Shown here one piece after another: positions 2,232-46,360 of a stretch of 64,000 nucleotides of DNA (position 1 is the stretch's first letter; every line of letters starts with the position of its first letter). Location of the stretch: assembly GCA_019429105.1 (NCBI GenBank), contig JAHYJE010000010.1:2172-66171 (forward strand), in the 5' to 3' direction. Both the position numbers and the translations under genes were made by a program. Below the pieces are notes generated by a model. That model worked only from the letters and a program-made list of their open reading frames with translations. It searched no databases and had not been told where the DNA came from. This DNA is from Syntrophobacterales bacterium. Lineage in GTDB: Bacteria > Desulfobacterota > Syntrophia > Syntrophales > UBA5619.

Positions 2232-2238
2232 GCCGCTA

Positions 2239-3641: not shown

Positions 3642-3926
3642 CTACAGGCATTCGATATGGTTGGGCATTTCGTCGTTCCAGACGACCAGAACTGTGGATC
3701 GCGGTTCTCCCAGCCAGCGAAAGAAATAGGCCGCTCTCTCTTCAATACTGTCATACCAGAAATCATCAAAGATGATACCCGTTACCTTGGCTTCTCGAAA
3801 AATGTCGGGCCAGGTGGTTATCGGCGCAAGCAGTTTGCTTCCTTTCACCGGTGGCGGTGGGAAAATGCCATCCAACCTTCTTGTCTGTTCCGCACGTTTC
3901 TTTTCCAAGTCAATCATGTCCGGCAT
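3642..3926 (-). CDS. Small hypothetical protein (94 aa)
   Basis: MPDMIDLEKKRAEQ...VLVVWNDEMPNHIECL; no family recognised. The ATG lies 9 nt after the upstream TAG and in the same frame. The ORF ends in TAG, followed by 34 further open codons (see findings). Confidence 0.5.
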   Translation of the reverse strand: MPDMIDLEKKRAEQTRRLDGIFPPPPVKGSKLLAPITTWPDIFREAKVTGIIFDDFWYDSIEERAAYFFRWLGEPRSTVLVVWNDEMPNHIECL

Positions 3927-3935
3927 TCCCTGAGT

Positions 3936-4793
3936 CTATTGGGCAGCAAGTGGCGTGACGGTCCATTTTGAAAGGGCTTTGCTGTGCTGCAGGAGATCGC
4001 CCTCCTCTGTGATTTCAAGATAAACCCTTGCCCCGCCGTACACCCGGCACATGCCAGCATCCACGTCGATAAGCTTTAAACCCTGTGCGGTCTGGACCCT
4101 GTTTTGCCTTGTCGGCGTATGGCCGAAAATTTGGGGAATCGTCCATGCCTCGAGGGAAGGGCTGATCTTAGAAAAGTCGCACCAGAAGATGCCCCCCACG
4201 TCATTATCGCCGCCTCTCTCTGGTCCCACATGGAAAATGGGGTGCCGTTCGAGATCGTCCTTCTCTACAGCCTGTCGGAAAATCCCGTTGATATGTTCAG
4301 CAAGCCGGTCGAGATCGCCGGTCCTTTCCTTCACTTGAGCCCCAATCGTTCCCATTTCCGCCATCAGGGCTTGCCGGATGGCGGATCTCAGACCGGCATG
4401 CGAATATAGCCGCGCTCCGTCGCTATAGGCAGCCTGCACATTGCCCTTGGCGATTTCCTCGGTCAGTTCAGGCATCAACGACGCCGGGTTGGTGAAATTG
4501 GCATAGAAAAATTTCCCCTGCAGGAGCATCAGCTCATGATTTCCGCAGAGGCGGATGACTGCACCCTTGGCGTGAATGGCTTCTTTCTGAAGATTCCTCA
4601 GTAACGCAATGGTTTCTCGTGAGTAAGGTCCTCTATCTATTACATCTCCTGTTTGTATTAAGATGCAATCGCTGCCACTCCAATTGTCTTTGTTATCAAT
4701 CAATCCCGCATTTCTCAAGATTTCTCTAAATCCATCCACTTCTCCGTGTATATCTCCTACGACAATGCGTCGTTTTTGTTCTACCGATTGCAT
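3936..4793 (-). CDS. Calcineurin-like metallophosphoesterase (PPP / ApaH-PrpA-like)
   Basis: 285 aa. RRIVVGDIHGEVDGF, QTGDVIDRGPYS and LCGNHELM are motifs I-III of the metallophosphoesterase fold. RBS AAGGGG lies upstream of the ATG at 4793. Confidence 0.85.
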   Translation of the reverse strand: MQSVEQKRRIVVGDIHGEVDGFREILRNAGLIDNKDNWSGSDCILIQTGDVIDRGPYSRETIALLRNLQKEAIHAKGAVIRLCGNHELMLLQGKFFYANFTNPASLMPELTEEIAKGNVQAAYSDGARLYSHAGLRSAIRQALMAEMGTIGAQVKERTGDLDRLAEHINGIFRQAVEKDDLERHPIFHVGPERGGDNDVGGIFWCDFSKISPSLEAWTIPQIFGHTPTRQNRVQTAQGLKLIDVDAGMCRVYGGARVYLEITEEGDLLQHSKALSKWTVTPLAAQ

Positions 4794-4863
4794 TCTAACC
4801 CCTTACTCATAATGCGGTGTCCGTGTATGGTGCCAGAAAATCGTAAAGAAAGATTACGCCTTG

Positions 4864-5499
4864 TTAGACTGCACCCCACGCACCAAGGAACTCTGGTTTC
4901 GGTTTTGACTTTCCATCGACCAGAGCAAGGGCTACTCGAACACGTGTAGCTGCATCTTCAAGGGCGGCTCTGATTTCGTCCTTGTTTCGATTGTAATCTG
5001 AGTCATCACGGACAAAGAAGAGGAGATATCCATATCTGATCTCGTTCTTTGGACCGGCTAATTTCGTGGCGTCGTTTATAGTGTGAACATTCCCCTTCCC
5101 GCACTCATTAAGGGCCAACTCAGCGGCACAGAGTACCTTTTGCTTACGGTGTTCCCGCTCCGCGATAAAGAGAGGATCCCAGATCGAGATGTCGAAGGCT
5201 CCACGCCTACGGCCTTCAACCGATTCCTCCAATTTTCCGTCTACCCTTCTCAAGTAACGGGCAACAGTAGGGTATTCCTTGTGAAGTAGTATCGTGTCAT
5301 AACCCTCAGCCGTGCGATAGAGACCATTCTCAAAGCCACCCGAATATAGGCGGTGATAGAGATAGCAGTGCATGTCAGTTTCTGTGTAGAATGCATACGG
5401 ATGATTCCGAAACCTTCGGACGAGACTCTTGATGGCAGCTTCAAATTTTGGAATGAGTATTTCTGGTGAAGGCAGCTCAGATGGACGTCGATATGGCAT
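4864..5499 (-). CDS. Hypothetical protein (211 aa), operon member
   Basis: A strong RBS, AAGGAGG, overlaps the stop of the upstream HD gene. No family recognised. GAFDISIWD...AAELALNE is at best a weak nuclease-like D..E pattern. Confidence 0.6.
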   Translation of the reverse strand: MPYRRPSELPSPEILIPKFEAAIKSLVRRFRNHPYAFYTETDMHCYLYHRLYSGGFENGLYRTAEGYDTILLHKEYPTVARYLRRVDGKLEESVEGRRRGAFDISIWDPLFIAEREHRKQKVLCAAELALNECGKGNVHTINDATKLAGPKNEIRYGYLLFFVRDDSDYNRNKDEIRAALEDAATRVRVALALVDGKSKPKPEFLGAWGAV

Positions 5500-5509
5500 A
5501 TCTCCTCCT

Positions 5510-6088
5510 TTAATTCAGGTAAATCTCTCTTCCTTCTTCATAAATATGCGCCGTCCAGTAATCGGCCCAATGGACGAGCAGAGTTAAGGGTTCCTCCTTG
5601 TGGGCGATAATCCTGTTATCTTCAATATACTGCCCGTCATGATAGGCAATTGCCTGGGCTTCGGCATCGGAGAGGGGTATGTATTGCGCCACCAGGTAAA
5701 GGCTTCTCACCGCCAGTCCCATTGCCACTACTTCGGGATTGATCTTATAGCGTATCCCTCGATTCTTTACCATCCATTTATTGTCATTATGCAGATATAG
5801 CGGTTTGCCGGGCATCCCCAGTTTCCCCACATCATGGAAAAGGCCGACTATGACGCAGCTCTCCTCGGGGATCGCCGGGGCAAGAAATTCCCGGAAACGC
5901 AGCAGGGATTCCGTCACCCCGACGCTGTGTTTCAAGAGACCCTGTTCCTCCGACAGATGAAACCTGGTACTCGCTGGAGAGGCGAGCCAGGTGGTCTCGC
6001 CCTCCAGGAGTTTGATGAAACACTCAAACGGTTCCTTCCGATCCGTGATCTTCTCTTTCAGTGCCTTATAACGATCTAACAATTCCAT
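5510..6088 (-). CDS. HD-domain phosphohydrolase
   Basis: 192 aa. TRFHLSEEQGLLKHSV ... GLFHDVGK ... AYHDG gives the H...HD...D metal-binding pattern. Confidence 0.85.
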   Translation of the reverse strand: MELLDRYKALKEKITDRKEPFECFIKLLEGETTWLASPASTRFHLSEEQGLLKHSVGVTESLLRFREFLAPAIPEESCVIVGLFHDVGKLGMPGKPLYLHNDNKWMVKNRGIRYKINPEVVAMGLAVRSLYLVAQYIPLSDAEAQAIAYHDGQYIEDNRIIAHKEEPLTLLVHWADYWTAHIYEEGREIYLN

Positions 6089-6101
6089 ACATTTACCTCA
6101 A

Positions 6102-7088
6102 TCATTGATTCGTCCGGTACGCCCTTCTCCGGGAGACGGGTGACATGCGGCCGGCTTTCTCGGTTTCCGTGATCTGAAAGAAGGCCATGTGGATCGCGGT
6201 GTTCTCATAAACCAAGGCGGAGCCGACGATATTCTTCCCTTCGTAGCGGTAATCCTGACCGTAGCCCACCGAGTCGAATCTCTGCTCCGTGCACAGGGCA
6301 ATCTTCTGCAGGAAGGCATCCGCCTTCTCCGGGGGTGTTTCTTTTGCCCTCCTCGGTTTTTCCGTCAGGGCGTCCATGACATAGCTGCGGATCAGCTTGG
6401 GGTGGAGCACGCTGAATGACGATGCGCGTGAGACTCTGTCCAGGCCGACCACGTCTCCGTTCACGATTACGACGAGGCCCTCCTGATCGGCACCCATCGG
6501 GAGGTGTTCCAGAAAGGCATCCATGTCTTCCTTTTTGGCTTCCAACACATCTTTCATCGCTCCCGTTACGGGGCTGACTTTATTGATGTGAGCCTGTGTG
6601 GCGATCTCGTCCCAGACCGCCCCCTGATCGGAACAAAAGCTGTGCGCGGATTTAAGATTTTCAAAGACGGAGGCATTCTTGACCCTCCTGAGCTTGGCGG
6701 ACATGATGTGGCCCGATTCCTCAAAATGGGCGGAGCGGTAGGACCAGCGGCCGTGCTCGGTGCAGCTTACAGGGATGACCATTTCCGACATTTCTTTGAG
6801 CAGGATGGTGGTATTGAGCACCCGGTTCTGCTTGGCGCCCGAGAGTTCCTCGCCGTCGAGAAGTAAAACGGGTTTTTTCCCCCGGTTGATGACCTTCAGC
6901 TCCGGGACCGTTCCGCCCTCCGTTACCTCGGTCACCGTGAGAAGCTGTTGCTCCATGGCCTCCTTCATGGTCAGGTAATCCGGCCCGGAATCGCCGCCGC
7001 CGATGATGGGGATCACGGCCACATGACCGTGGACCTGAACCTCTCCGAACTTGATCCTTTCCAAACTTCCCTTAACGATTGCTTCCAT
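6102..7088 (-). CDS. ARPP-1 / DUF6569-like protein (family assignment from memory of motifs, unverified)
   Basis: The ORF track gives 530 aa (6102..7694), but residues 1-202 are antisense to the WYL gene. The ATG at 7088 has RBS AGGAGA and gives 328 aa. LLLDGEELSGAKQNRVLNTT and IPVSCTEHGRW resemble the family found next to ADP-ribosylglycohydrolase and rhodanese-phosphatase genes. Confidence 0.55.
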   Translation of the reverse strand: MEAIVKGSLERIKFGEVQVHGHVAVIPIIGGGDSGPDYLTMKEAMEQQLLTVTEVTEGGTVPELKVINRGKKPVLLLDGEELSGAKQNRVLNTTILLKEMSEMVIPVSCTEHGRWSYRSAHFEESGHIMSAKLRRVKNASVFENLKSAHSFCSDQGAVWDEIATQAHINKVSPVTGAMKDVLEAKKEDMDAFLEHLPMGADQEGLVVIVNGDVVGLDRVSRASSFSVLHPKLIRSYVMDALTEKPRRAKETPPEKADAFLQKIALCTEQRFDSVGYGQDYRYEGKNIVGSALVYENTAIHMAFFQITETEKAGRMSPVSRRRAYRTNQ

Positions 7089-7116
7089 GGCTTTTCTCCT
7101 TTCCCCCTCTTTTGTC

Positions 7117-7144
7117 TTGACCTTAGGCGGTTTTCCCTGATAAT
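7117..7144 (+). promoter_or_regulatory. Candidate sigma70-type promoter for the WYL regulator gene
   Basis: TTGACC (7117..7122), a 16-nt spacer, then GATAAT (7139..7144), about 68 nt upstream of the ATG at 7212 in the divergent control region. Confidence 0.4.
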
Positions 7145-7155
7145 TCCAGAGCGGG

Positions 7156-7173
7156 GCGACAAGGGTGTGTCGC
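7156..7173. promoter_or_regulatory. Inverted repeat GCGACA-N6-TGTCGC in the divergent control region (candidate operator or leader hairpin)
   Basis: gcgacaagggtgtgtcgc lies between the candidate promoter and the WYL gene RBS (GAAGGAGG). Confidence 0.3.
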
Positions 7174-7211
7174 ATTATTTGAGGACGCATTTCCTGAAGG
7201 AGGCAAAGGCG

Positions 7212-8207
7212 ATGGGCCGTGAGCAAAACGCGCAGACGAAACTGATCCGGTTGGGCCAGATCCTCAGAATCTTCATGGAGAAGGATAAAGTCGCGAGCAG
7301 TTGGTTGAGCGAGCAGTTCCAGACCACACCTCGGACGATTCAGCGTGACCTGCTTCTCCTCAAAGAGTCCGGTTTCCCTCTTCATGAGATACAGAAAGGC
7401 ATTCACCAGATGAGCAAGGACCTGGTGAAAAATCTGGAGGTGTTCGACGATACCGAGCTTGCCCTGGTGATCGCCCTGAAGAATATGGTGGGGCAGTTGG
7501 GCCAGCCCTTCCAGCAGGCGGCCGACGGTGTTCTCGACCGGCTGTACGATTGCGTGACTACCATGCCGGTGTTCGTGAAGATCGACGAATCCGTACCGCT
7601 GGACAGTGCTCTGCTCAATCGGATCGTGAAGGCCATTCGGGAAAAGAGGCGGGTTGGTTTTCAGTATGCGCTCGCAAAAGGGAGCGGGATGCATCCCGTC
7701 GATCTGGAACCCTACCGGGTCGTCTATTTCGGCGGTTTCTGGTACCTGATCGGCAACGAGCCCTGCACGGGGATTCTCAAACGGTACGCCCTCGACCGGA
7801 TCAGGAATTTGCGTCTATCGAATGATGTATTCAAGGGTGTTCCCGATGATCTGGATACGATCCTTCAGGGCAGCGCCAATATCTGGTTTACCGGCGAGCG
7901 GAACCCGGAGGTGACCATCCTGGTCGATTCCCAGGTCGGTCATTATTTCAAGCGGCGGAAGATGTTCCCGACACAGGAGATCAAAGAAGAAAGGCCCGAT
8001 GGGGCGCTTGTCCCGACACAGGAGATCAAAGAAGAAAGGCCCGATGGGGCGCTTGTCGTCTCATATCGGGTAGGCAATTACGAGTCCATCGAAAATCTTC
8101 TCAAATCCTGGATACCCCATATCGTGATCTTGGAGCCAAAAGAATTCAGGGAGTCCTTTCTGGCGGATGCAAAGGAGTGGGTCCGCAAACAAGGGAAGGT
8201 GCGTTGA
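7212..8207 (+). CDS. HTH-WYL-WCX transcriptional regulator
   Basis: The ATG at 7212 has RBS GAAGGAGG (the ORF-track N-terminal extension from 6948 is antisense to the neighbouring gene). The N-terminal wHTH is LIRLGQILRIFMEKDKVASSWLSEQFQTTPRTIQRDLLLLKESGF. The WYL core is LEPYRVVYFGGFWYLIGNEP. The C-terminus is IVILEPKEFRESF. Confidence 0.9.
   Translation: MGREQNAQTKLIRLGQILRIFMEKDKVASSWLSEQFQTTPRTIQRDLLLLKESGFPLHEIQKGIHQMSKDLVKNLEVFDDTELALVIALKNMVGQLGQPFQQAADGVLDRLYDCVTTMPVFVKIDESVPLDSALLNRIVKAIREKRRVGFQYALAKGSGMHPVDLEPYRVVYFGGFWYLIGNEPCTGILKRYALDRIRNLRLSNDVFKGVPDDLDTILQGSANIWFTGERNPEVTILVDSQVGHYFKRRKMFPTQEIKEERPDGALVPTQEIKEERPDGALVVSYRVGNYESIENLLKSWIPHIVILEPKEFRESFLADAKEWVRKQGKVR
7966..8055 (+). 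repeat. Perfect 45-bp tandem duplication inside the WYL regulator gene (in frame, 15 aa x2)
   Basis: tcccgacacaggagatcaaagaagaaaggcccgatggggcgcttg occurs at 7966..8010 and again at 8011..8055. It encodes PTQEIKEERPDGALV twice. Confidence 0.97.
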
Positions 8208-8237: not shown

Positions 8238-8484
8238 CATAATACCATTTTTCTTCTCATTACCAAGCTCCATGCATATTCAAGACTGGTACTGGCTCCA
8301 CAATTGTTCCCCTCGTCAGCCAAATCCTGCCGGACGGCTCTGCCTTCCTGACTTTGCAGTGGGTTCAGGTGGAACATCTGGCCACCAGGCATGTGTTTCC
8401 GGTAAATTATCGTCTTAACTTTTTATCGTTGGCGTGATATATGTCTCACCGGCGATCTGTAAATTTTAGTTTTGAGGTATAGCA

Positions 8485-8712
8485 ATGAATAATCCAACCA
8501 TTGAATTGAACCGCCCACAGCTCGTATCTGCACTATCGCAGTTCTCCCCGGAAGCACTGAAAAAGGTCATAGACGATCTGTTCCGTAAGAAGCTCTACAA
8601 ACCGCATTCTCTGGATGAAATCACCAGAGAGGCATCCGCCATGGTCTGCAAGGCCAAACTGGGGCCAGAAACGGTAGCGGAAGCGGTGAAATGGGCACGA
8701 TCTCAAAAATAG
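8485..8712 (+). CDS. Putative antitoxin partner of the downstream PIN gene (no family recognised)
   Basis: 75 aa with RBS GAGGT. Its 3' end overlaps the ATG (8691) of the PIN reading frame, a typical toxin-antitoxin arrangement. Confidence 0.5.
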   Translation: MNNPTIELNRPQLVSALSQFSPEALKKVIDDLFRKKLYKPHSLDEITREASAMVCKAKLGPETVAEAVKWARSQK

Positions 8713-9107
8713 TTATCGACACCAATGTATTCATATCCGCCTTTGGGTGGGATGGCGAACCTGAATAGGTGTTGCGCTTATTGGAACAGCAGCACATTTT
8801 CAACTACACGACCGACAATATCTATGATGAGCTCCGTCGTGTAGTTGCCTATCCCAAACTGAAGTTTTCCGCTTCACTGCAAGCCAAAATTCTTGAATTC
8901 GTCTTCTGTTGGTCAACGTTTATGCAACCCGTTAAGGCCGTTTTTGTTGTAACTGATGATCCTGATGACGACAAGTTCATTTCCTGCGCACTCGTTGCCG
9001 GCGCCAGCCACATCGTTTCCGGCAACCCCCACCTGCTGAATATTGACACCTACCAGAGCATCCGGATTCTAACCCCTGCTCAGTTTATAAAATCATTCGA
9101 CAAATAG
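8691..9107 (+). pseudogene. PIN-domain (PIN_3-like) toxin gene interrupted by an in-frame TAG at 8766..8768
   Basis: The frame from ATG 8691 reads MGTISKIVIDTNVFISAFGWDGEPE-TAG-VLRLLEQQHIFNYTTDNIYDELRRV...VVTDDPDDDKFISCALVAGASHIVSGNPHLL. IVIDTNVFISA and D.DD.FI..A...A..IVSGD..LL are PIN_3 hallmarks. The ORF track shows only the GTG-initiated C-terminal 112 aa. Confidence 0.8.
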
Positions 9108-9284
9108 CTTATGATCTCCTGCGAAACATGCCGGACGGCACACACGCGCATCCGCTTGCGGAAAGCCCCAATCCTCGCTTATTTTCTTTTCTAATGACGG
9201 CGGCACGGCGGGGCTCTCAGGATTGGTCAAAACCAAATCCTGACCTCGGCCGTCAATAGTGGACATGAAATATTTCATGCTTCA

Positions 9285-9458
9285 GAGGCAATTGCAAAAC
9301 TCTCACATTCTGTCATTCCCGCAATGATTTTAAGCGGGAAAACGAAGTTTAATGTTCATAATCTGGTTCTAACTGCTTGAAAAACCGTATTCCCGATAGA
9401 AGCATTGTGTACATTAAGCTCCGCTTTCGGGAATGACAAATAGTTTTGCAATTGGCTC
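9285..9458. repeat. MITE-like hairpin repeat bounded by terminal inverted repeats, copy A (174 bp)
   Basis: Left end gaggcaattgcaaaact, right end agttttgcaattggctc (17-bp inverted repeats, 1 mismatch). The interior shares gtcattcccgcaatgattttaagcgggaa and attcccgatagaagcatt...cgggaatgac with the copy at 57660..57791. It carries two extra inserts of about 20 nt. Confidence 0.85.
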
Positions 9459-9638
9459 TTCATACTTGGCATTTATCTTGATTATATGTCAAGTACGGTT
9501 GCCCGATAGCGAGACCATTCTGGCTGAATTTGTTGATAACATCATTAATATTAAAAGTTTATAATGTAAGGACCATTAGTGTAGAATAATTATTTTTACC
9601 GTTGACATGAAAGCGAGACAGGAGTAGGAGCACCGCTT

Positions 9639-10169
9639 ATGTTTAAACTTGTTAAAAAAATAATTGCCACACCCAATAACATCGTCTCGCTGAATCTTGA
9701 GGATTGCGAGCAGGTGGAGGTTACTGAAGTTGGCATAAAGATTGAAGAAAAAGTGAAGCGTCTCTTCCGGGGATCGCTTGCTATCAGACAGGTGGACGCA
9801 GGCTCCGACAATGCCGCCGAACAGGAACTGGTAGCCTTGTCCAATCCTTTTTACGATGTCGAGCGGTTCGGAATCCATTTTGTCGCTTCGCCCCGCCACG
9901 CCGACATGCTGATAGTAACAGGCCCGGTGACCCGGAATATGGCAGAAGCGGTGCGGCGGGCGTACGGAGCGACGCCGGATCCCAAGATCGTGGTGGCGCT
10001 CGGCGACGACGCCATTAACGGAGGCATCTATCGGGAAAGTTACGCGGTACTTGACGCGGTTAAAAACGTCATCCCGGTTGATTACGAGATTCCGGGCAAT
10101 CCGCCCTCCCCTAAAACCATTCTCTGTCATTTGGTTAAAATATTGTACAGAGTATCTGCGGCGCATTGA
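9639..10169 (+). CDS. NuoB/HycG-like small subunit of an Ehr-type complex; all Fe-S cysteine ligands substituted
   Basis: 176 aa with RBS AGGAG. FGIHFVASPRHADMLIVTGPVTRNMAEAVRRAY is the NuoB/HycG core. The cluster-ligand positions read VDAGSDNAAEQE, ALGDDAINGG and IPGNPPSP, with no Cys. Confidence 0.85.
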   Translation: MFKLVKKIIATPNNIVSLNLEDCEQVEVTEVGIKIEEKVKRLFRGSLAIRQVDAGSDNAAEQELVALSNPFYDVERFGIHFVASPRHADMLIVTGPVTRNMAEAVRRAYGATPDPKIVVALGDDAINGGIYRESYAVLDAVKNVIPVDYEIPGNPPSPKTILCHLVKILYRVSAAH

Positions 10170-10171
10170 TC

Positions 10172-12220
10172 ATGATTGAATTTATTATATCGCCGGACGG
10201 CTTTATCATATTGCTGCTGTTGTTTCTGCTGGGGGCTCTCGGCGCGGCGCTGCTGAAAAATAATGATGAGTCGGCCAACTACTGGAGCAGCTTCTTCGCG
10301 ATAGCCGGTTCGCTCTGGGGCGTCCTGTTCGGTCTGGGGTCGCTTTTTGCCGTCCGGCCGCTCCTGTTTACCATCGGGGCCTCCCCCTTTTCGCTTTTGC
10401 AGTTTTCCTTTCTGATCGACAAGCTGGCCGCCTTCTTCGTTTTTATCATCTGCCTGATCGCCCTCTTCTGTTCGCTCTACGGCATTGACTATGTTAGGCA
10501 GTACTACCGCAAATACAGCATCGGGTCGCTGGGATTTTTTTACAACCTCTTTATTGCCGGGATGCTGCTCGTGGTTACCGCGACCAACGGACTTTTTTTC
10601 CTGCTTGCCTGGGAGATCATGTCGGTCGCGTCCTTTTTCCTGGTCATCTACGATCGCCATGAACAGGAAAATATCCGGGCAGGGTTTCTTTACTTAGTCA
10701 TGACGCATGTCGGCACCTCCTTTATCATCGCGGCCTTTCTGCTCCTTTACAAATTTACCGGGTCGTTCGAATTTTCGCTGATCAGAAATGGGGCGGGAAT
10801 GATTCCCGGCTCAGTCAAAAACGCCGTTTTCGTTTTATCGCTGATCGGGTTCGGCACAAAGGCCGGCATTATCCCGCTGCATATCTGGCTCCCCGGCGCG
10901 CACCCGGCGGCCCCTTCGCACGTCTCGGGGCTAATGTCCGGCGTGATGATAAAAACCGGGATATACATGATGATCCGGATTTTTCTCGATCTGCTCCAGC
11001 CGTTTCCGTTGTGGTGGGGGGTGGTTCTGCTCATCACCGGCGCGGTTTCTTCCCTGCTGGGCGTCCTTTACGCCCTGACCGAGCACGACATCAAAAAGCT
11101 GCTGGCCTACCACAGCATAGAAAATATCGGGATCATCCTGCTGGGTCTCGGGAGCGCCCTCACCTTTCTTTCCCTCCAAATGCCGGCGCTCGCGCTGGTC
11201 GGTTTGGTCGCCTCCCTTTTTCATACGTTAAACCACGCCACCTTCAAGTCGCTCCTTTTTCTCGGCGCCGGTTCGGTGATCAATCAAACGCACACCCGAA
11301 ACATGGAGGAATATGGCGGTCTTATCAAATTAATGCCGCAGACCGCGCTGCTTTTTCTCGTTGGGTCCATGGCCATCACGGCCCTGCCGCCCTTTAATGG
11401 TTTTTTCAGCGAATGGCTCACCTTCCAAGCGCTCTTCCAGGGAATCGCAGCTCCCAATTCACAGGTAATCTGGATATTTGTGATAGCGGCGGGCGCACTG
11501 GCCTTTACCGGCGGTCTGGCGCTTGCCTGTTTCGTCAAGGCCTTTGGCGCGATCTTTCTCGCCCGTCCCCGCAGCGACGAGGCCAAGCACGCCAAAGAAT
11601 CCTCCCCCTTCATGCTCGCCGGGATGTGGTCGCTGGGGGCGCTGTCGCTGTTATTCGGGGTTGGTTCCGGCTATGTTTCTCAAGTTCTTCAAGCAGTTGG
11701 AGGCGAGTTTGCGGTCTTCCAAAATCTTCCTGCCCCGTTTTTGCACACGGAAGGGGGATGGATCACAGTCGGCGGCTTTTCCTCCGTCTTTGCGCCGGCA
11801 ATATTTCTGGCGTTGCTCTTGGCGCTTTTGGCCGTTGTCTTTGCGGTCAACCGCCTGCTCAGTCGTCGGCAGACCGTCAGGACCGGCCCCACCTGGGATT
11901 GCGGCACGGATCTGACGCCCCGCATGGAAATTACCTCAACCGGGTTCGCACGTTCCATCATCCTTATATTTAAGGGAATCTTGAAACCGACCATGCAAAA
12001 AGCGGTTGAATATCGGGACGGGGAGTCGCGCTATCTGCCGAAGTCGAGGATGATCAAGCTCGGCATGAACGATATCTACGAGAAATATCTCTATGAACCG
12101 GCCCAGGCCTTTGTCCTCAAATTTTCGCTCTACGCCAAAAAGGTGCAGAGCGGCTTGATCAACATGTATATCCTTTACATTTTAATCGCCCTGGTCGGCG
12201 TTTTACTTTTTTCACTGTGA
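10172..12220 (+). CDS. HyfB/NuoL-like antiporter-type membrane subunit (EhrA-like)
   Basis: About 682 aa and polytopic. LLAWEIMSVASFFLV, GTKAGIIPLHIWLPGAHPAAPSHVSGLMSGVMIK and LAYHSIENIGIILLG are Mrp/NuoL-family motifs. The ATG at 10172 lies 3 nt after the upstream stop (the ORF track uses TTG at 10166). Confidence 0.9.
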   Translation: MIEFIISPDGFIILLLLFLLGALGAALLKNNDESANYWSSFFAIAGSLWGVLFGLGSLFAVRPLLFTIGASPFSLLQFSFLIDKLAAFFVFIICLIALFCSLYGIDYVRQYYRKYSIGSLGFFYNLFIAGMLLVVTATNGLFFLLAWEIMSVASFFLVIYDRHEQENIRAGFLYLVMTHVGTSFIIAAFLLLYKFTGSFEFSLIRNGAGMIPGSVKNAVFVLSLIGFGTKAGIIPLHIWLPGAHPAAPSHVSGLMSGVMIKTGIYMMIRIFLDLLQPFPLWWGVVLLITGAVSSLLGVLYALTEHDIKKLLAYHSIENIGIILLGLGSALTFLSLQMPALALVGLVASLFHTLNHATFKSLLFLGAGSVINQTHTRNMEEYGGLIKLMPQTALLFLVGSMAITALPPFNGFFSEWLTFQALFQGIAAPNSQVIWIFVIAAGALAFTGGLALACFVKAFGAIFLARPRSDEAKHAKESSPFMLAGMWSLGALSLLFGVGSGYVSQVLQAVGGEFAVFQNLPAPFLHTEGGWITVGGFSSVFAPAIFLALLLALLAVVFAVNRLLSRRQTVRTGPTWDCGTDLTPRMEITSTGFARSIILIFKGILKPTMQKAVEYRDGESRYLPKSRMIKLGMNDIYEKYLYEPAQAFVLKFSLYAKKVQSGLINMYILYILIALVGVLLFSL

Positions 12221-12223
12221 ACT

Positions 12224-13150
12224 ATGAATATAATTTTTGACATACTGCAACCGCTTTTCGTCCCTTTGCTTTCGCCGCTCTTGATCGGCGTCGTCAAGAA
12301 GATCAAGGCAAAAATGCAAAATCGCCAGGGCGCGGGCGTTCTTCAGCCGTATCGGGACTTATGGAAGCTTTTTCACAAGGATGAGGTAATCAGTCAAGAC
12401 GCCTCCTGGATTTTCCGCATGGCGCCCTATATCATCTTCGCGGTCACGCTCATTGTCGGCGCCTTCATCCCTATATTCAATTTGAACACCTTCACAGCCC
12501 CCCTCGGCGATTTGCTCGCCGTTGTGTATCTGCTAGCAATCGGTACGTTTTTTCTGGCTCTGGCCGGAATCGATACCGGCAGCGCGTTCGGCGGGTTCGC
12601 CTCCAGCCGCGAAATGACCGTTTCGGCGCTCGCGGAAGTGGGCCTGATCTTTTCGTTTTTTATCCTATCATTGGTGAGCGGCAGCACAAACCTCTTTACA
12701 ATCGCCGATTCCGTACTCGTCGCCAATATCACCTCCCTGCAGCCGATCATCCTGGCCGGTCTGGGATATTTTATAGTACTGCTGGCCGAGGGCGGGCGGT
12801 ATCCCTTTGACAACCCGGCAACCCACCTTGAACTGACCATGATTCACGAAGCGATGATTTTGGAATATTGCGGCCGGCGGTTGGCGCTCATGGAGTGGGC
12901 AGCTGCCAATAAGTTATTTATTTTCATGACTTTGGGAGCTAATTTATTCTTTCCGTGGGGGCTGATGCATGAGTTTTCATTGGCCGCCCTGATTGTTGCC
13001 GTCGCCGTTTTCGCTCTCAAACTATCGGCGTTCTGTTTTGCAATTGCCTTTATCGAGTCCGGCATCGCCAAATTCCGCTTCTTCCGTCTGCCGGATTTGC
13101 TTATCGTCTCTTTCATACTTAATATTGTCGCAATCGGGTTAATTAAATAA
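12224..13150 (+). CDS. HycD/HyfC/NuoH-like membrane subunit (EhrB-like)
   Basis: 308 aa. LQPYRDLWKLFHKDEVIS near the N-terminus and FDNPATHLELTMIHEAMILEY are typical of HycD/NuoH-like subunits. Confidence 0.85.
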   Translation: MNIIFDILQPLFVPLLSPLLIGVVKKIKAKMQNRQGAGVLQPYRDLWKLFHKDEVISQDASWIFRMAPYIIFAVTLIVGAFIPIFNLNTFTAPLGDLLAVVYLLAIGTFFLALAGIDTGSAFGGFASSREMTVSALAEVGLIFSFFILSLVSGSTNLFTIADSVLVANITSLQPIILAGLGYFIVLLAEGGRYPFDNPATHLELTMIHEAMILEYCGRRLALMEWAAANKLFIFMTLGANLFFPWGLMHEFSLAALIVAVAVFALKLSAFCFAIAFIESGIAKFRFFRLPDLLIVSFILNIVAIGLIK

Positions 13151-13151
13151 A

Positions 13152-13799
13152 ATGGAACTGTTCTCCCCACACTTTCTGGCAGTAGCGATTTTTCTGACGA
13201 TCATCTTCTCCCATATCGTCAAGAGAAACATTATCATCGTTACCGTTTACGGCATTCAGTCGTCGGCAATCGTGCTGCTGCTGTTCCGCTCGTTTTTAGA
13301 GACAAAGTCCCTGGCGATGCTCTTTATCGTTATCCTCGTTGCCGCCATCAAGGTTTTCCTGCCGCTCCGTTTTTTTATCGGCTTTATCCGAAAGTACGAA
13401 ACGGGCTTGTCCTCATCCGCATATCTGAATTTGCCCCTGACCCTGATTGTGGTCGCGGCGCTGAGCACGTTTGCGCACAGCCGGCTGTTTGCGCCGCTTG
13501 CGACAATCGTACCGGGAAATAGCGCCCTGCTTTCGCTCAGCATCGCCGGGATGATGATCTCGCTTTTATTGATGATCAACCGTAAAGGCATCTTGTCGCA
13601 GATCATCGGGGTGCTTTCGCTGGAAAACGCCATCGTGGAATTCGGTTTGTTTGCCGGCCTCGAACAATCGCCCGTGCTGCAGCTTGGCATCATGTTCAAC
13701 ATCCTGGTCTGGCTGATTATTACGGCCGTTTTTTCCTCAATGATCTACCGGCATTTTGGAGCGCTGGAGACGGCGGGAATGAAGAGTTTGAAAGAATAG
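13152..13799 (+). CDS. HyfE/NuoK-like small membrane subunit (EhrC-like)
   Basis: 215 aa and hydrophobic. Its position between the NuoH-like and NuoN/M-like genes matches hyf/hyc-type clusters. VLSLENAIVEFGLFAG resembles HyfE. Confidence 0.7.
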   Translation: MELFSPHFLAVAIFLTIIFSHIVKRNIIIVTVYGIQSSAIVLLLFRSFLETKSLAMLFIVILVAAIKVFLPLRFFIGFIRKYETGLSSSAYLNLPLTLIVVAALSTFAHSRLFAPLATIVPGNSALLSLSIAGMMISLLLMINRKGILSQIIGVLSLENAIVEFGLFAGLEQSPVLQLGIMFNILVWLIITAVFSSMIYRHFGALETAGMKSLKE

Positions 13800-13802
13800 T
13801 CA

Positions 13803-15251
13803 ATGGAACCTGTTATCATCATATCGATTTTGTCGCTCGCCGCCATGGCCTGTCTGCTCCTCAAGAGCCTCCGGGCGATCGAGTATGTCTCCCTCGGCGC
13901 TGCCGCTATCGTTTTTATCGCAGCCGTCAGCCTGGCGCTTGACGTCTCCGTTCATCCCTCTCTTGCTTCCGCCCAGTTTTTTTGGGTCGATCCGCTGGCG
14001 GCGATCATTGCCCTGCTGATCGGAACGGTCGGTTTGGCCGCGGCGTTCTATTCCATATTTTACCTCCGTGCGGAGATGGCCAAGGGGATCATCGGGTTTC
14101 ACCGCGTCAAGCAGTATTTCATCCTGTTCAACCTTTTTCTCCTGGCGATGTTCTTTGCGGTAATGGTCAACAATCCGATTTTGATGTGGATCGCGATTGA
14201 ATCGACGACGCTTTCCACCGTCTTTCTGATCAGCTTCTACGACAAGCCAACCGCCCTCGAAGCCGCCTGGAAATATTTGATCATCAACTCCACCGGTCTC
14301 TTGCTGGGATTTTTCGGAACGCTCCTCTATTTTACCTCGGTGCACTCAACGGGTGGAAATGATTTGATAAGCTGGGAGATATTAAGGGCAAACACGGCGA
14401 ATTTGAATCCGCTCATCGCCAAGATCGCCTTTATTTTTGTTCTGATCGGTTACGGTACGAAGGTCGGATTTGCGCCGATGCACACCTGGCTTCCCGACGC
14501 CCACAGCAAAGCCCCGGCGCCGATCAGCGCCCTCCTCTCCGGCGTACTGCTTAATATCGCCCTTTTTGCCGTCCTGCGCTTCAAACTGCTTACCGACGCG
14601 GTTGCCGGGCAGGCTTTTTCCGAGGGACTCCTCATGTTGTTCGGCCTCGTTTCGATCATCATCGCCGCCCTGATCATGCTGACCCAGCAAAATTATAAGC
14701 GGCTTTTGGCATACTCGAGCATTGAAAACATGGGGATAGTGGCGCTCGGTTTCGGCATGGGAGGAATCGGGGTTTTTGCCGCGATCCTCCACATGATCTA
14801 TCATGCCCTGGTGAAACCGGCTCTGTTTTTTTTAGCGGGCAACATTTTTTTGAAATACAGCTCCACCAAAATCGCCAATATCCGAGGGGTAATTTCCGCC
14901 TTGCCGGTATCTGCGGGTCTATTTCTGACCGGATTTTTTACCGTTACCGGCACGCCGCCGTTTGGAATCTTTTTTACGAAGATTTATGTCCTGTCCGCTG
15001 CCATCGGGACGAATCTCTTCGCCGGTCTGATCGCGATTTTCGCCTTTGCGCTCGTTTTCATTGGTTTTTTCAGGCAGGTTATCGCAATGATGTTCGGCGA
15101 AAAACCTTCAGAGATGCCGGTCGGGGAAATCCATCGCCTGCTCATTGCTCCGCCTTTGCTGCTTTTAGCAGCAGCGCTGGCGCTTAGTTTTTATCTGCCG
15201 CCGTTTCTTTCTGAACTGATCACGCAGGCCGTAGGGAAATATTCGTTATGA
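13803..15251 (+). CDS. HyfF/HycC/NuoN-M-like antiporter-type membrane subunit (EhrD-like)
   Basis: 482 aa. GTKVGFAPMHTWLPDAHSKAPAPISALLSGVLLN and LAYSSIENMGIVALGFG are motifs of the antiporter-like subunits. Confidence 0.9.
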   Translation: MEPVIIISILSLAAMACLLLKSLRAIEYVSLGAAAIVFIAAVSLALDVSVHPSLASAQFFWVDPLAAIIALLIGTVGLAAAFYSIFYLRAEMAKGIIGFHRVKQYFILFNLFLLAMFFAVMVNNPILMWIAIESTTLSTVFLISFYDKPTALEAAWKYLIINSTGLLLGFFGTLLYFTSVHSTGGNDLISWEILRANTANLNPLIAKIAFIFVLIGYGTKVGFAPMHTWLPDAHSKAPAPISALLSGVLLNIALFAVLRFKLLTDAVAGQAFSEGLLMLFGLVSIIIAALIMLTQQNYKRLLAYSSIENMGIVALGFGMGGIGVFAAILHMIYHALVKPALFFLAGNIFLKYSSTKIANIRGVISALPVSAGLFLTGFFTVTGTPPFGIFFTKIYVLSAAIGTNLFAGLIAIFAFALVFIGFFRQVIAMMFGEKPSEMPVGEIHRLLIAPPLLLLAAALALSFYLPPFLSELITQAVGKYSL

Positions 15252-16822
15252 AATCACAAGTTTTTGACAGCATTATTCCCGCAGGGCATCAAATTGAACG
15301 TCATGGACGTTTGAGTGTTTTTGCCGTCAGCCCCTCCGAAATCAAAAAAGTCGCACTTTATTTTCACCAGGAAAAACGGTTGCCGCTGATGATAATTGCC
15401 GCAACCGACGAAAGGAAAGAAAAGGGCGCCTTTAAAATATGGTATGTCTTCGGAGTTCCTGGAGAAAACCGTTTTGTGGCTCCCTATATCAGCCTCGCTG
15501 ACACAGTGGAATTCCCGTCTCTTGCCGCGGAGATTCACGAAACATGGGAGTATGAAAGACTGATTCAGACCTTTTTTGGCTTGCGGCCGGTCGGTCATCC
15601 CCATCCGCTGCCGCTGATTCTGCATGAGAACTGGCCAGCCGACGGCTTCCCGCTGCGCAAGGATTTTCACTGGCAGACCCGGCCGGAAACGGCGCAGGGC
15701 GTTTATCCTTTTCAACAGGTAGCGGGCGAAGGAATCTACGAAATACCGGTAGGCCCCATCCACGCCGGCATTATCGAACCGGGCCATTTCCGCTTCAGCG
15801 TTGCCGGCGAGGAGATCGTCCTGCTCGAACCACGCCTCGGCTACACGCACAAGGGCAGCGAAAAACTCTTCGAAGAACTGCCGCTGCCGGATAAAATCCG
15901 CCTCTCCGAGAAGATTTCCGGCGACAGCTCCTTTAGCCACTCTCTGGCCTTCTGCCAGGCGCTGGAGGAGCTGGCCGACATAACCGTTCCCGCCCGGGCG
16001 TCTCATCTGCGCGTGATCTATGCAGAATTGGAAAGGCTGGCCAACCACCTGGGCGATCTCGGCGCAATCATGCTCGACGCCGGCTTTAACTTCGGCGGTT
16101 CGCAGTGCTCGCGCCTGCGGGAAATGATCATGCAAATAAACGATCGCCTTACCGGCAGCAGATTTCTGCGGGGGGTGAACGCCATAGGCGGGGTTGAAAA
16201 GGATATTTCCTTGGAAAAGTCCCTTCAGTTAGTGGATGAGCTAGGGAAAATCAGGAAGGATTTTTCCGAAATAATGGCGGTTGCCCAAAACAGCGCCTCG
16301 CTGCTCAATCGCCTGGAGACGACCGGCACACTGCCGCTGGAGATTGCCCGAGAGCATGGCGTCGTCGGGATTGCTGCGAAGGCGCTGGGAATCGTGAATG
16401 ACGCCCGGCGCGATTATCCATACGCCGCTTATGACAGCCTCTATGTTGCCGATACATTTGCAAAAACCGGCGGCGATGTGTATGCCCGCTTTATGGCGCG
16501 GGCAACAGAGGTTTATGGTTCCATCAAGATGATTCAGCAGGCGCTGGCGGGGTTGCCCGCCGGGCCCATACAGACAGCAATCGCCGGGGCGGGATTGTTC
16601 CGAAAAAGCTCATTGGCGCTTGGAATTGTGGAAGGCTGGCGGGGGAATATCGTTTATTTAGTCCATACAGACGAACAGGGCGAAATAAGTAGGGTAGCCC
16701 TGCGCGATCCCTCTTTTTTAAACTGGACGCTGCTCGGTTACGCAGCGGCCGGCTACATCGTCCCCGATTTTCCCCTGATCAACAAGAGCTTCAACCTTTC
16801 CTACTCCGGAAACGACCTCTAA
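15248..16822 (+). CDS. NuoC-NuoD / HycE-like large subunit (EhrL-like) lacking both NiFe-binding CxxC motifs
   Basis: 524 aa; ATGA overlap with the upstream gene. VGPIHAGIIEPGHFRF and LEPRLGYTHKGSEK are large-subunit hallmarks. The N-terminal NiFe motif reads EKISGDSSFSH and the C-terminal one reads FNLSYSGNDL, with no Cys at the ligand positions. Confidence 0.88.
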   Translation: MKSQVFDSIIPAGHQIERHGRLSVFAVSPSEIKKVALYFHQEKRLPLMIIAATDERKEKGAFKIWYVFGVPGENRFVAPYISLADTVEFPSLAAEIHETWEYERLIQTFFGLRPVGHPHPLPLILHENWPADGFPLRKDFHWQTRPETAQGVYPFQQVAGEGIYEIPVGPIHAGIIEPGHFRFSVAGEEIVLLEPRLGYTHKGSEKLFEELPLPDKIRLSEKISGDSSFSHSLAFCQALEELADITVPARASHLRVIYAELERLANHLGDLGAIMLDAGFNFGGSQCSRLREMIMQINDRLTGSRFLRGVNAIGGVEKDISLEKSLQLVDELGKIRKDFSEIMAVAQNSASLLNRLETTGTLPLEIAREHGVVGIAAKALGIVNDARRDYPYAAYDSLYVADTFAKTGGDVYARFMARATEVYGSIKMIQQALAGLPAGPIQTAIAGAGLFRKSSLALGIVEGWRGNIVYLVHTDEQGEISRVALRDPSFLNWTLLGYAAAGYIVPDFPLINKSFNLSYSGNDL

Positions 16823-46344: not shown

Positions 46345-46360
46345 GGGAGAAAAAAATTAT

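Follow-up and report, generated by a model that had tools for sequence, protein, structure and literature searches.

Can a complex that is built like a group 4 hydrogenase, and from which all metal-cluster ligands have disappeared, still have a function, and if so, which one? This question is raised by positions 9639-16822 of the 64,000-nt stretch of Syntrophales DNA analysed here (i.e., the window), where six tightly packed genes lie on the + strand. An earlier note on this DNA had named six co-directional genes, in the order NuoB-like, HyfB-like, NuoH/HycD-like, HyfE-like, HyfF-like and NuoCD/HycE-like, and had read them as an Ehr-type module. All six ORFs and their family assignments bear out this order, every peptide quoted at the time is present in the translations, and both the alignment to solved structures and a large-subunit tree agree with the Ehr assignment. 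Judged by its sequence, the operon is an Ehr complex, with the following features:

9536..9565, + strand: candidate promoter ATAACA-18-TATAAT (10/12 matches), ~75 nt upstream of the first gene
~9621-9631, + strand: purine-rich RBS (from reading the sequence)
9639..10169, + strand: small subunit, NuoB/MbhJ/HycG-like, 176 aa (PF01058, 1.7e-24; MbhJ 6cfw_J, 5e-30)
10172..12220, + strand: HyfB/HycC/NuoL/MrpA-type antiporter-like subunit (PRK06521, 9e-200; PF00361)
12224..13150, + strand: NuoH/HycD-like subunit, 308 aa, linking the peripheral and membrane arms (PF00146, 3.8e-43)
13152..13799, + strand: HyfE-like small membrane subunit, 215 aa, with a NuoK-like C-terminal part (PRK11492, 1.5e-8, and PF00420, 2.9e-4, both below their respective cut-offs)
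13803..15251, + strand: HyfF/NuoN/MrpD-type antiporter-like subunit, 482 aa (HyfF PRK06458, 1e-124; PF00361, 7e-53)
15248..16822, + strand: fused NuoC+NuoD/HycE-like large subunit, 524 aa (PF00329, 4.8e-13; PF00346, 1.1e-37)

The gaps at the successive junctions amount to -4 or +2, 3, 1, 3 and -4 nt, the first depending on whether TTG 10166 (684 aa) or ATG 10172 (682 aa) is taken as the start of the HyfB-like gene, the latter being the one called in relatives. The promoter is a candidate only, since the region contains no more sites of this kind than expected after shuffling. Further matches to solved chains were obtained for the HyfB-like subunit, which carries a C-terminal extension (HycC 7z0s_C, 2e-78; MbhH, 6e-58), for the NuoH-like subunit (HycD 7z0s_D, 8e-49) and for the large subunit (HycE 7z0s_E, 1.4e-69).

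In phmmer alignments to solved MbhJ and HycG chains, all four [4Fe-4S] cysteines of the small subunit proved to be gone, with the MbhJ motifs GSCNGCD, GAC and PGCPP standing opposite GSDNAAE, GDD and PGNPP in the window. Likewise, alignment to solved HycE and MbhL revealed that all four [NiFe] cysteines are missing from the large subunit, where RVCGICGFAH and DPCYSCTD of HycE face KISGDSSFSH and NLSYSGND. The ligand columns of both subunits thus confirm what the earlier note had claimed, i.e., the loss of all cluster cysteines from the small subunit and of the RxCGxCxxxH and DPCxxC motifs from the large one, and contain the following residues instead:

9807-9809, + strand: D57, former Cys1 of the small subunit (alignment to MbhJ)
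9816-9818, + strand: A60, former Cys2 of the small subunit (alignment to MbhJ)
10008-10010, + strand: D124, former Cys3 of the small subunit (alignment to MbhJ)
10098-10100, + strand: N154, former Cys4 of the small subunit (alignment to MbhJ)
15917-15919, + strand: S224, former [NiFe] Cys of the large subunit (alignment to HycE)
15926-15928, + strand: S227, former [NiFe] Cys of the large subunit (alignment to HycE)
16799-16801, + strand: S518, former [NiFe] Cys of the large subunit (alignment to HycE)
16808-16810, + strand: G521, former [NiFe] Cys of the large subunit (alignment to HycE)

Across 120 small-subunit homologues, the former Cys columns hold D/T, C/A/V, D and D/N, respectively, the third being an invariant D within GDDA and the second being free (C/A/V/E; Ala in the window). 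The large subunit hardly varies in K/R-I-S-G-D-S-S-F-S-H and NKSFNLSYSGNDL (120 homologues), and its D226, located between the former ligands S224 and S227, is invariant. The large subunit stops (...SGNDL) where mature HycE ends (...SCTDR), indicating that there is no protease-cleaved extension. Moreover, the quinone-binding Tyr87 of complex-I Nqo4 falls opposite the invariant G225 and has no Tyr counterpart; Nqo4 His38 falls opposite I176 in an ungapped alignment, a placement that is uncertain because loop lengths differ. The fold of the cytoplasmic cap (NuoB + NuoCD) is retained without a [4Fe-4S] or [NiFe] ligand set: the AF2 model of the small subunit (pLDDT 80) matched MbhJ in Foldseek (TM 0.82), and that of the large subunit (pTM 0.85) matched HycE (TM 0.84).

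The loss of all catalytic ligands is what one would see in a decaying, functionless relic of a hydrogenase operon. Such decay is hardly credible, however, given six intact, tightly packed ORFs, a dN/dS of 0.08-0.14 in every gene (vs. a Syntrophales relative), a cross-phylum identity of 60-75% with near-invariant replaced motifs, and hundreds of loci; the selection data already contradict it. As far as sequence comparison can tell, the ligand replacements reflect selection and not decay. Identity to the window averaged ~0.70 in the small subunit, the highest value, ~0.60 in the large and NuoH-like subunits and 0.44-0.56 in the antiporter-like and HyfE-like subunits, making the peripheral arm the best-conserved part of the complex. 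The earlier description of this arm as having no recognisable redox site therefore stands in that both ligand sets are gone, but falls short in that the replaced positions are kept as an acidic/polar set within the best-conserved arm.

With these ligands missing, electrons presumably cannot enter, so that the machine would not be redox-driven. The genes around the operon were scrutinized as well: upstream lies a PIN toxin gene that is broken, and downstream lie those of an SDR and a Liv-type ABC transporter. None of these flanking genes is of the ferredoxin, hyp or protease type, as the earlier note had stated for HycF/NuoI-type ferredoxin, protease and hyp genes. The window scan covered ORFs from 200 aa upwards (from 150 aa upwards at positions below 30 kb), and shorter ORFs only at the flanks; the scanned ORFs outside the operon were housekeeping genes, with no hyp or maturation protease genes among them, and neither they nor the flanks contained NuoI/G/E/F genes adjoining the operon. 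No Fer4-type gene was found in or beside the operon in the window and its relatives, and no conserved Fe-S, hyp, protease or dehydrogenase partner emerged across 50 dereplicated Cys-less loci.

Could the complex still be a redox enzyme, with a partner encoded elsewhere (such as formate dehydrogenase or ferredoxin) and an unconventional Asp/Asn-held cofactor, reducing quinone or another acceptor? Asp serves as an Fe-S cluster ligand in some proteins, the small-subunit cubane is kept in most Ehr, and in one Firestonebacteria relative an NrfA-like cytochrome gene ends 21 nt upstream of the operon. In addition, an FDH-Ehr has been proposed in Margulisbacteria and Saganbacteria (PMC6349859), and Geobacter contains more of its Ehr subunits when grown on formate (PMC7894505). 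Nevertheless, the clade of the window has Asp/Thr/Asn at three of the four cluster ligands and a freely variable residue at the fourth, together with no NuoI/HycF-type relay, no [NiFe] ligands, a Gly opposite the quinone Tyr and no dehydrogenase conserved nearby (50 loci). We know of no cubane with Asp/Thr/Asn and a variable fourth ligand, and a redox function appears very improbable.

Ehr complexes have been described as lacking the [NiFe] cysteines (PMC3569383, PMC6349859, PMC10284858, PMC7304191), and those of CPR bacteria form a monophyletic clade inferred to be unable to interact with H2 (Jaffe et al. 2020, PMC7304191). Upon dereplication, 83 of 146 small subunits kept their cysteines, 50 had lost them and 13 were partial, some of the latter through motif-pattern mis-hits. 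Most sampled Ehr operons have the gene order B-C-E-F-L-S and retain the small-subunit cysteines. The window falls in one monophyletic subclade in which the small subunit comes first and its cysteines are lost, and which is centred on CPR/Patescibacteria but also includes Syntrophales, Endomicrobiales and Firestonebacteria. The earlier characterisation of Ehr clusters as cysteine-less consequently holds for the [NiFe] cysteines, but not for most sampled small subunits, which keep all four cubane cysteines. As the sampled loci place it, total Cys loss is a derived state of one Ehr subclade; this confinement of small-subunit Cys loss is new, the cited Ehr papers mentioning only the loss of the [NiFe] ligands. 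In a rough tree of 117 large subunits (NJ, midpoint-rooted, without a curated reference set), the window grouped with Cys-less large subunits, its clade being nested among those from Nitrospira, Thaumarchaeota, Firmicutes and Acidobacteria.

The only recurrent neighbour of Cys-less Ehr loci was the F-type ATP synthase. Among loci with usable flanks, its genes occurred within 8 kb in 9/32 Cys-less vs. 0/72 Cys-retaining loci (Fisher p = 1e-5, a value that ignores shared ancestry and the small size of CPR genomes), and the atp-linked loci were spread across both deep branches of the clade. In several loci, 10-13 nt separate the end of the last ATP synthase gene from the small-subunit gene of Ehr. 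Judging by their c subunits, the neighbouring ATP synthases seem to be of the H+ type, and a Na+ signature that would demand a Na+/H+ converter is missing. The complex might be an accessory or regulator of ATP synthase or membrane energisation (e.g., a regulated proton leak, a pH/cation sensor or an assembly platform), given that the operon runs straight on from atpC in several CPR-type loci and that the acidic residues in place of the cluster ligands could sense pH or a cation. This seems improbable, though, because keeping a pair of complete antiporter-like subunits, all relay residues included, would be costly for a mere regulator, and many members are without atp linkage, including the operon in the window, which has no atp genes next to it.

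The membrane arm, comprising two MrpA/MrpD-type antiporter-like subunits (PF00361 scores of 3.7e-58 and 7.3e-53), a NuoH-like and a NuoK-like subunit, appeared fully equipped, with all canonical Lys/Glu/His relay residues invariant (27-32 clade members). Specifically, E150, K232, K263, H353, H357, K361 and E416 of the HyfB-like subunit are invariant, as are E133, K220, H330, H334 and K338 of the HyfF-like subunit, whose TM12 position is occupied by K or E throughout. The HyfE-like gene keeps its operon position in all relatives, with K67 and E158 invariant. The NuoH-like subunit has 24 invariant charged residues and the loop P-x-D-N-P-x-T-H-L-E-L-T-M-I-H-E-A-M-x-x-E-Y-S/C-G (C in the window), which is common to true [NiFe] relatives; neither this loop nor the beta1-beta2 loop GPIHAGIIEPGHFR, both of them coupling elements, differs from its counterpart in the true [NiFe] relatives.

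Since every metal-cluster ligand has been replaced and selection is strong, the complex most likely moves ions without redox chemistry. With a probability of roughly 0.45, the operon would encode a self-contained, cofactor-free descendant of a group-4f-type hydrogenase, acting as a redox-independent, pmf-linked ion translocator, possibly together with ATP synthase. The earlier note had raised such a redox-independent translocator as one option, and the evidence favours it, although the function itself is something we infer. Ion translocation would be coupled to the ion-motive force, the complex serving either to exchange H+ for cations in the manner of Mrp or as a gated conduit for H+. Where NuoB, NuoD and NuoH meet, the chamber that once held the active site may be lined by the acidic triad D57, D124 and N154 (alternatively Asp) and by a pocket of Ser, Asp, Asn and His residues surrounding the invariant D226, and may act as a cytoplasmic ion-binding or gating site communicating with the conserved NuoH loop. 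The geometry of this chamber is conjectural, as the single-chain AF2 models have low confidence exactly at the best-conserved motifs. CPR bacteria mostly lack respiratory chains, and in them the complex would operate with the F1Fo ATP synthase, either spending pmf from ATP hydrolysis on cation and pH homeostasis or adjusting the coupling-ion gradient.

An antiporter model leaves the top conservation of the cap unexplained, because classical Mrp works without a NuoH/B/C/D module, and such conservation would be better accounted for by a role in catalysis or ligand binding. The complex could be a vectorial catalyst or a pump driven by non-redox chemistry, in which the conserved polar pocket, once the [NiFe]/quinone site, binds a small substrate and converts it by, for example, CO2/HCO3- interconversion (as in cyanobacterial NDH-1 Cup and DabAB), hydrolysis or decarboxylation, this chemistry being coupled to ion translocation so as to make pmf for the neighbouring ATP synthase or to consume it. 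The well-conserved peripheral arm and the near-invariant replacements suit a catalytic or ligand site over a plug, synteny with ATP synthase would fit a pmf-generating device, and a beta-carbonic-anhydrase-like gene (PF20393 Pro_CA_2; CxDxR, HxxC) adjoins 3/50 Cys-less operons (L089, L121 and L127). On the other hand, the pocket keeps no Zn-type His/Cys ligand set, the unchanged NuoH and beta1-beta2 loops argue against a new catalytic site, the carbonic-anhydrase-like gene adjoins few operons and is missing from the window, a carbon-concentrating mechanism would be of little benefit to CPR bacteria, and no candidate substrate enzyme is co-conserved. We regard vectorial catalysis as unlikely and retain ion translocation as the preferred reading.

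Compared with known systems, the operon resembles Ehr such as that of Geobacter sulfurreducens (EhrA-D,L,S; GSU0739-45) in its six subunit types, in having no ferredoxin-like subunit and in a large subunit with S-G-D...H and L-S-Y-S/A-G-x-D replacing the two CxxC motifs, but differs from typical Ehr (B-C-E-F-L-S, four small-subunit cysteines) in its leading small subunit with D, A, D and N. It groups with sequences of the CPR Ehr clade (PMC7304191), although its host is a Syntrophales bacterium. Its best sequence and fold matches (HycE, HycC, HycD and HycG) point to group 4f/Hyf (FHL-2) and E. coli FHL-1 (7Z0S), and its NuoH and beta1-beta2 loops are identical to the ones found in relatives that bear [NiFe] and share its gene order (L051, L064, L072 and L073). 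In contrast to group 4 [NiFe]-hydrogenases, it has no L1 RxCGxCxxxH, L2 DPCxxCxxH/R or proximal cluster, and unlike Hyf/FHL it is without HycF/HycB/HyfA-type Fe-S subunits, the C-terminal extension, protease, hyp and formate dehydrogenase. With complex I and photosynthetic NDH-1 it shares the L-shaped module logic (NuoB-NuoCD-NuoH plus antiporter-like subunits), but not the cluster N2 ligands, the quinone Tyr (opposite Gly) or NuoI/E/F/G. The likeness to Mrp (Mnh/Pha), which is redox-independent, includes MrpA/MrpD-type subunits that share the Glu/Lys/His relay (matches in the PDB: 7qru_A, 7qru_D and 6z16_A), i.e., TM5 Glu, TM7/TM8 Lys, TM11 His/Lys and TM12 Lys/Glu, and a NuoK/MrpC-like small subunit. 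Mrp, however, has no NuoH, NuoB, NuoC or NuoD homologues, and MrpB, E, F and G were not detected among the six genes by family assignment; lacking the seven-subunit MrpA-G set lowers the likelihood that the complex is an Mrp, not that it works like one. Finally, although the operon has no carbonic-anhydrase-like subunit of the DabAB/Cup kind (the Pro_CA_2 gene adjoining only the three relatives above), DAB and Cup illustrate that the same scaffold can drive non-redox chemistry or run on ion gradients.

The interval 9639–16822 is filled by six + strand ORFs separated by gaps of –4 to +3 nt, which could be assigned as follows:

9639–10169, + strand: small subunit of 176 aa, NuoB / hydrogenase small-subunit family (PF01058, 1.7e-24)
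10172 (or TTG at 10166)–12220, + strand: HyfB-like subunit of 682 aa (PRK06521, 9e-200)
12224–13150, + strand: NuoH/HycD-like subunit of 308 aa (PF00146, 3.8e-43)
13152–13799, + strand: weakly HyfE/NuoK-like subunit of 215 aa (both matches under the cut-off)
13803–15251, + strand: HyfF-like subunit of 482 aa (1e-124)
15248–16822, + strand: fused NuoC+NuoD, HycE-like large subunit of 524 aa (PF00329 and PF00346)

This arrangement agrees with the earlier note, which had described six co-directional and tightly coupled genes. Since the junctions within the operon measure only 1–4 nt, no hidden gene is present inside it, and a search for an extra small subunit in related loci revealed that the ORFs separating atpC from the small-subunit gene were mutually non-homologous. 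The closest solved relatives of the operon proteins were the chains of the Escherichia coli formate hydrogenlyase and the Pyrococcus furiosus Mbh complex (HycE 1.4e-69, HycC 2e-78, HycD 8e-49, HycG 4e-28, and MbhJ 5e-30). The searched PDB copy contained no structure of an energy-converting-hydrogenase-related (Ehr) complex; HycE (29% identity) and MbhJ (41%) gave the best matches. The small subunit was 100% identical to a GenBank protein of a Syntrophobacterales MAG. A recent horizontal transfer of the operon was rejected on the basis of a composition check, as its GC content resembles that of the remainder of the window.

The cofactor ligand columns were subsequently read from phmmer alignments to the solved chains. 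In the small subunit, the MbhJ motifs GSCNGCD / GAC / PGCPP align with GSDNAAE / GDD / PGNPP, so that the four cubane cysteines correspond to D57, A60, D124, and N154, while in the large subunit the HycE motifs RVCGICGFAH / DPCYSCTD align with KISGDSSFSH / NLSYSGND, so that the four [NiFe] cysteines correspond to S224, S227, S518, and G521. The loss of all [4Fe-4S] cysteines from the small subunit and of the [NiFe] cysteine motifs from the large subunit, as claimed in the earlier note, was thus confirmed in every column, and its description of the ORFs and ligand positions proved right in all details. Alignment with HycE furthermore showed that the large subunit ends three residues past G521, i.e., at the end of mature HycE, and lacks a protease-processed C-terminal tail. 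In the same phmmer search, the complex I quinone ligand Tyr87 of Nqo4 was found opposite G225, and Nqo4 His38 opposite I176 in an ungapped alignment that is uncertain since loop lengths differ. The likeness of the G-D-S-S and S-G-N-D stretches to SGNH-esterase blocks was put down to chance, given that the motifs are short and the fold is unrelated.

Homologues of the large subunit number in the thousands, and nearly all of the best 120 (61–89% identity) carry K/R-I-S-G-D-S-S-F-S-H and I-N-K-S-F-N-L-S-Y-S-G-N-D-L. The family to which the operon belongs is Ehr, whose large subunits are hydrogenase-like, devoid of the [NiFe] cysteines, and of unknown function (PMC3569383, PMC6349859, PMC10284858, PMC7894505). 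With one genome scanned per species, more than 580 loci were obtained, distributed over Patescibacteria/CPR, Endomicrobiales, Fibrobacteria, Thermoleophilia, Nitrospira, Rokubacteria, Acidobacteria, Verrucomicrobia, Firmicutes, Thaumarchaeota, and Methanomassiliicoccus. The majority have the gene order B-C-E-F-L-S (with B, C, E, F, L, and S standing for the HyfB-, NuoH/HycD-, HyfE-, and HyfF-like, large, and small subunits) and a small subunit with all four cysteines (GSCNGCE, GxCA, GCPP), whereas the window and its nearest relatives have the order S-B-C-E-F-L and a small subunit from which these cysteines are lost. After dereplication of the small subunits at 95%, 50 were Cys-less (32 demonstrably S-first, 17 on contigs too short to tell, and one S-last) and 83 retained all four cysteines (70 S-last and four S-first); a further 13 scored as partial, some of them being mis-hits of the motif pattern. 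The single S-last exception (L076 9815–12082, on metagenome chromosome OW818647) represents an independent loss of the small-subunit cysteines, and its large-subunit motif is highly divergent (SASTDTALGN). Two Nitrospirota loci (L029 4826–19895 and L074 34–13847) each carry two complete tandem B-C-E-F-L-S operons, the large subunits of which fall on different tree branches (motifs RVSGTSSFAH and RVSGDTTVAH).

In a neighbour-joining (NJ) tree of 117 large subunits, a check that the earlier note had proposed, the window grouped within Ehr, where it forms one nested clade with all S-first Cys-less loci; a few true [NiFe] enzymes (4f-like, with the same gene order) nest there as well. The complete loss of cofactors thus represents a derived condition that characterises one subclade of Ehr. 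CPR members of the family had already been noted to form a monophyletic clade, in a text that discusses the metal-binding cysteines of the catalytic subunit only (PMC7304191); this clade most likely corresponds to the Cys-less subclade, with which it was matched by description.

In contrast to the driving chemistry, the membrane arm has been retained. Among 27–32 clade members, the HyfB-like subunit invariantly carries E150 (TM5), K232 (TM7), K263 (TM8), H353/H357/K361 (TM11), and E416 (TM12), the HyfF-like subunit E133, K220, and H330/H334/K338 (with K or E in TM12), and the HyfE-like subunit K67 and E158, while 24 charged residues are invariant in the NuoH-like subunit. Moreover, Cys-retaining Ehr and true [NiFe] relatives have the same NuoH loop, PxDNPxTHLELTMIHEAMxxEYSG, and, in the large subunit, the same beta1-beta2 loop, GPIHAGIIEPGHFR. 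The presence of these elements in the [NiFe] relatives led us to reject both loops as a new catalytic centre and to regard them as ancestral coupling elements, and their identity across both groups indicates that the hydrogenase coupling hardware stayed unchanged while the chemistry driving it was removed.

All neighbours were clustered across 50 Cys-less and 93 other loci. Generic ABC-transporter ATPases aside, the families recurring beside Cys-less operons were the F-type ATP synthase (Pfam) and, rarely, Pro_CA_2. The alpha-gamma-beta-epsilon genes lie directly upstream and co-directional in eight loci (L004, L010, L054, L092, L093, L103, L107, and L109), and in L092 and L093 the small-subunit gene follows the end of atpC after 10–13 nt. 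In L089 and L102, the atp genes lie downstream in convergent orientation, and in L005 and L126 they are nearby. When the count was restricted to loci whose flank measured 2.5 kb or more, atp genes occurred within 8 kb of 9/32 Cys-less loci vs. 0/72 other Ehr/4f loci (Fisher p-value of 1e-5, kinship ignored), and the NJ tree placed the atp-linked loci in both deep branches of the Cys-less clade. A Na+-type c-ring in these neighbouring ATP synthases, which would have supported a Na+/H+ converter, was rejected because the c-subunit motif looks H+-type (AFAEAIAIY, no Q / E-S/T). As to Cys-retaining operons, a small gene family recurs upstream of eight of them (L023, L040, L043, L062, L130, L135, L136, and L167), directly so where checked, and is absent from the Cys-less clade; the two members scanned (L062 and L023) are ArsR/SmtB-type HTH regulators.

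The same 50 Cys-less and 93 other loci yielded no conserved redox partner in the form of FDH, ferredoxin, hyp, or protease genes. In two Firestonebacteria loci (L173/L174), a same-strand NrfA-like (Cytochrom_C552) multihaem gene at 8349–9980 terminates 21 nt upstream of the gene for the Cys-less small subunit, with ACS/CODH and NuoF-like genes convergent downstream; this one-off context could hint at a lineage-specific partner. A cryptic redox role of the complex is very improbable.

ORF scans of the window likewise revealed no ferredoxin-type, hyp, protease, or dehydrogenase genes linked to the operon, in line with the earlier note, which had found no ferredoxin, protease, or hyp gene adjacent. 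Upstream lies a TA-like pair in which a small antitoxin-like ORF accompanies a PIN toxin gene (8485–9107, + strand), the latter broken by an in-frame TAG at 8766–8768 (…FGWDGEPE*VLRLLEQQ…) that reflects either a pseudogene or a sequencing/assembly error. In the Syntrophales relative L171, this place is taken by another TA pair (TacA1 and an acetyltransferase). The 530-nt spacer after the pair contains a promoter-like site and, between this site and the TA module, one copy of a palindromic repeat family of ca. 135–190 nt (9278–9465, 46185–46351, and 57653–57798), which ends in the inverted 18-mer AGAGGCAATTGCAAAACT (7 matches vs. 0.07 expected) and resembles a MITE or REP-like element. The spacer copy forms a long hairpin (–63 kcal/mol, z = –5.7). 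No Rfam match to a riboswitch or leader RNA naming a ligand (Na+, Mg2+, c-di-AMP, etc.) was found upstream in the window and 16 related loci. Downstream and convergent are an SDR gene, the only neighbour common to the window and a Syntrophales relative, and a Liv-type ABC transporter; the other genes of the 64 kb serve housekeeping and fatty-acid or organic-acid metabolism. On the – strand, an IS21-family insertion sequence (IstB-like ATPase and rve integrase/transposase) occupies 38263–40504, and 1338–7694 holds co-directional genes for an ADP-ribosylglycohydrolase, a metallophosphatase, an ARPP-1 domain protein of 530 aa, a protein weakly matching an HD domain, and two proteins without Pfam match, which together may constitute an ADP-ribosylation or defence-type island.

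All six genes displayed a dN/dS of 0.08–0.14 between the window and a Syntrophales relative, excluding a functionless relic. The small subunit had the highest mean identity to the window (ca. 0.70), followed by the large and NuoH-like subunits (0.60) and by the HyfB-, HyfF-, and HyfE-like subunits (0.56, 0.52, and 0.44, respectively). Among 120 small-subunit homologues (69–93% identical across phyla), the former Cys1 is D or T, the former Cys3 is D (GDDA) in 120/120, and the former Cys4 is D or N, while the former Cys2 varies freely (C/A/V); genome and metagenome scans revealed divergent clade members that also have S, E, or G at positions 1, 2, or 3, respectively. In every solved homologue, these four positions encircle one cluster; by homology, and provided that the fold is maintained, they would bring two or three carboxylates together at a site that would presumably bind a cation or protons. 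Structure prediction showed the small-subunit fold to be retained (AF2 and Foldseek; TM of 0.82 to MbhJ), although single-chain AF2 models, while confirming the folds, had low confidence precisely at the key motifs. In the large subunit, no clade-specific residues marking a new site were found, D226, between two former cysteines, being the sole universal gain.

The operon thus encodes a complete, selected, six-subunit complex-I-like assembly with an intact ion-relay system, devoid of Fe-S or Ni-Fe ligands, of a counterpart to the quinone tyrosine, and of an electron-input subunit, from which we infer that it cannot be redox-driven. Its most economical function would be ion translocation coupled to the ion-motive force, via Mrp-like exchange or a gated conduit, with the former active-site chamber possibly turned into an acidic, polar site for ion binding or gating and, in CPR, a working partnership with the F1Fo ATP synthase. 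To this joint reading we assign a probability of roughly 45%. Its main weakness is the strongly conserved cap (the NuoB- and NuoCD-like subunits), which is superfluous for an antiporter. Because an antiporter needs no such cap, a non-redox catalytic or ligand-driven role of the D226 pocket, e.g., in CO2/HCO3– handling, is a serious rival, albeit unlikely. Genes for the small, beta-carbonic-anhydrase-like Pro_CA_2 (PF20393) adjoin Cys-less operons in three unrelated loci, with CxDxR and HxxC motifs visible in the second and third:

L089, 16258–16596: Pro_CA_2 gene
L121, 3743–4246: Pro_CA_2 gene
L127, 2920–3366: Pro_CA_2 gene

The ion-relay residues, for their part, are invariant throughout the clade members compared; a regulatory role of the assembly seems improbable. 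Beyond the ion-motive-force-coupled translocator, it is conceivable, if doubtful, that redox chemistry was wholly replaced, with an acidic triad at the place of N2 and an Asp-centred polar pocket at the Ni-Fe/quinone place together forming a new non-redox energy-input or ion-loading site, and the complex either pumping ions by an undiscovered reaction or interconverting gradients in an obligate F1Fo partnership. If so, CPR would possess a previously unrecognised bioenergetic module, and the Fe-S cluster of other Ehr complexes would be dispensable for core function.

CPR/Patescibacteria mostly lack respiratory chains, and the ATP synthase synteny offers a concrete hypothesis for how they manage their membrane potential. 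We know of no Ehr complex with an experimentally tested function; as a minimal six-gene target that needs no metal-cluster maturation, the present variant should be easier than most of its relatives to express heterologously and to study by metal analysis, transport assays, and cryo-EM. The Ehr family and a CPR-specific Ehr clade are already in the literature, while the Ehr papers cited here do not describe the retention of small-subunit cubane ligands in most Ehr vs. their loss in this clade, the conserved acidic residues that replace them, the tightest constraint falling on the peripheral arm, or synteny of the Cys-less clade with ATP synthase. The Ehr-defining study of Marreiros et al. 2013 (BBA) may already mention the small-subunit cysteine loss.

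The variant is of interest chiefly as a natural redox-free complex I and as a tractable route to Ehr function. How local chemistry at NuoB/NuoD/NuoH brings about long-range ion translocation in complex I and its hydrogenase relatives is debated, and the Cys-less clade provides a natural test of this coupling, as its coupling parts (NuoH loop, beta1-beta2 loop, and antiporter relay) have been kept under strong selection while conserved acidic and polar residues took the place of every redox cofactor. Should the variant transport ions, it would reveal the capabilities that the scaffold shared with complex I and the hydrogenases has in the absence of electrons, and identify the trigger residues.
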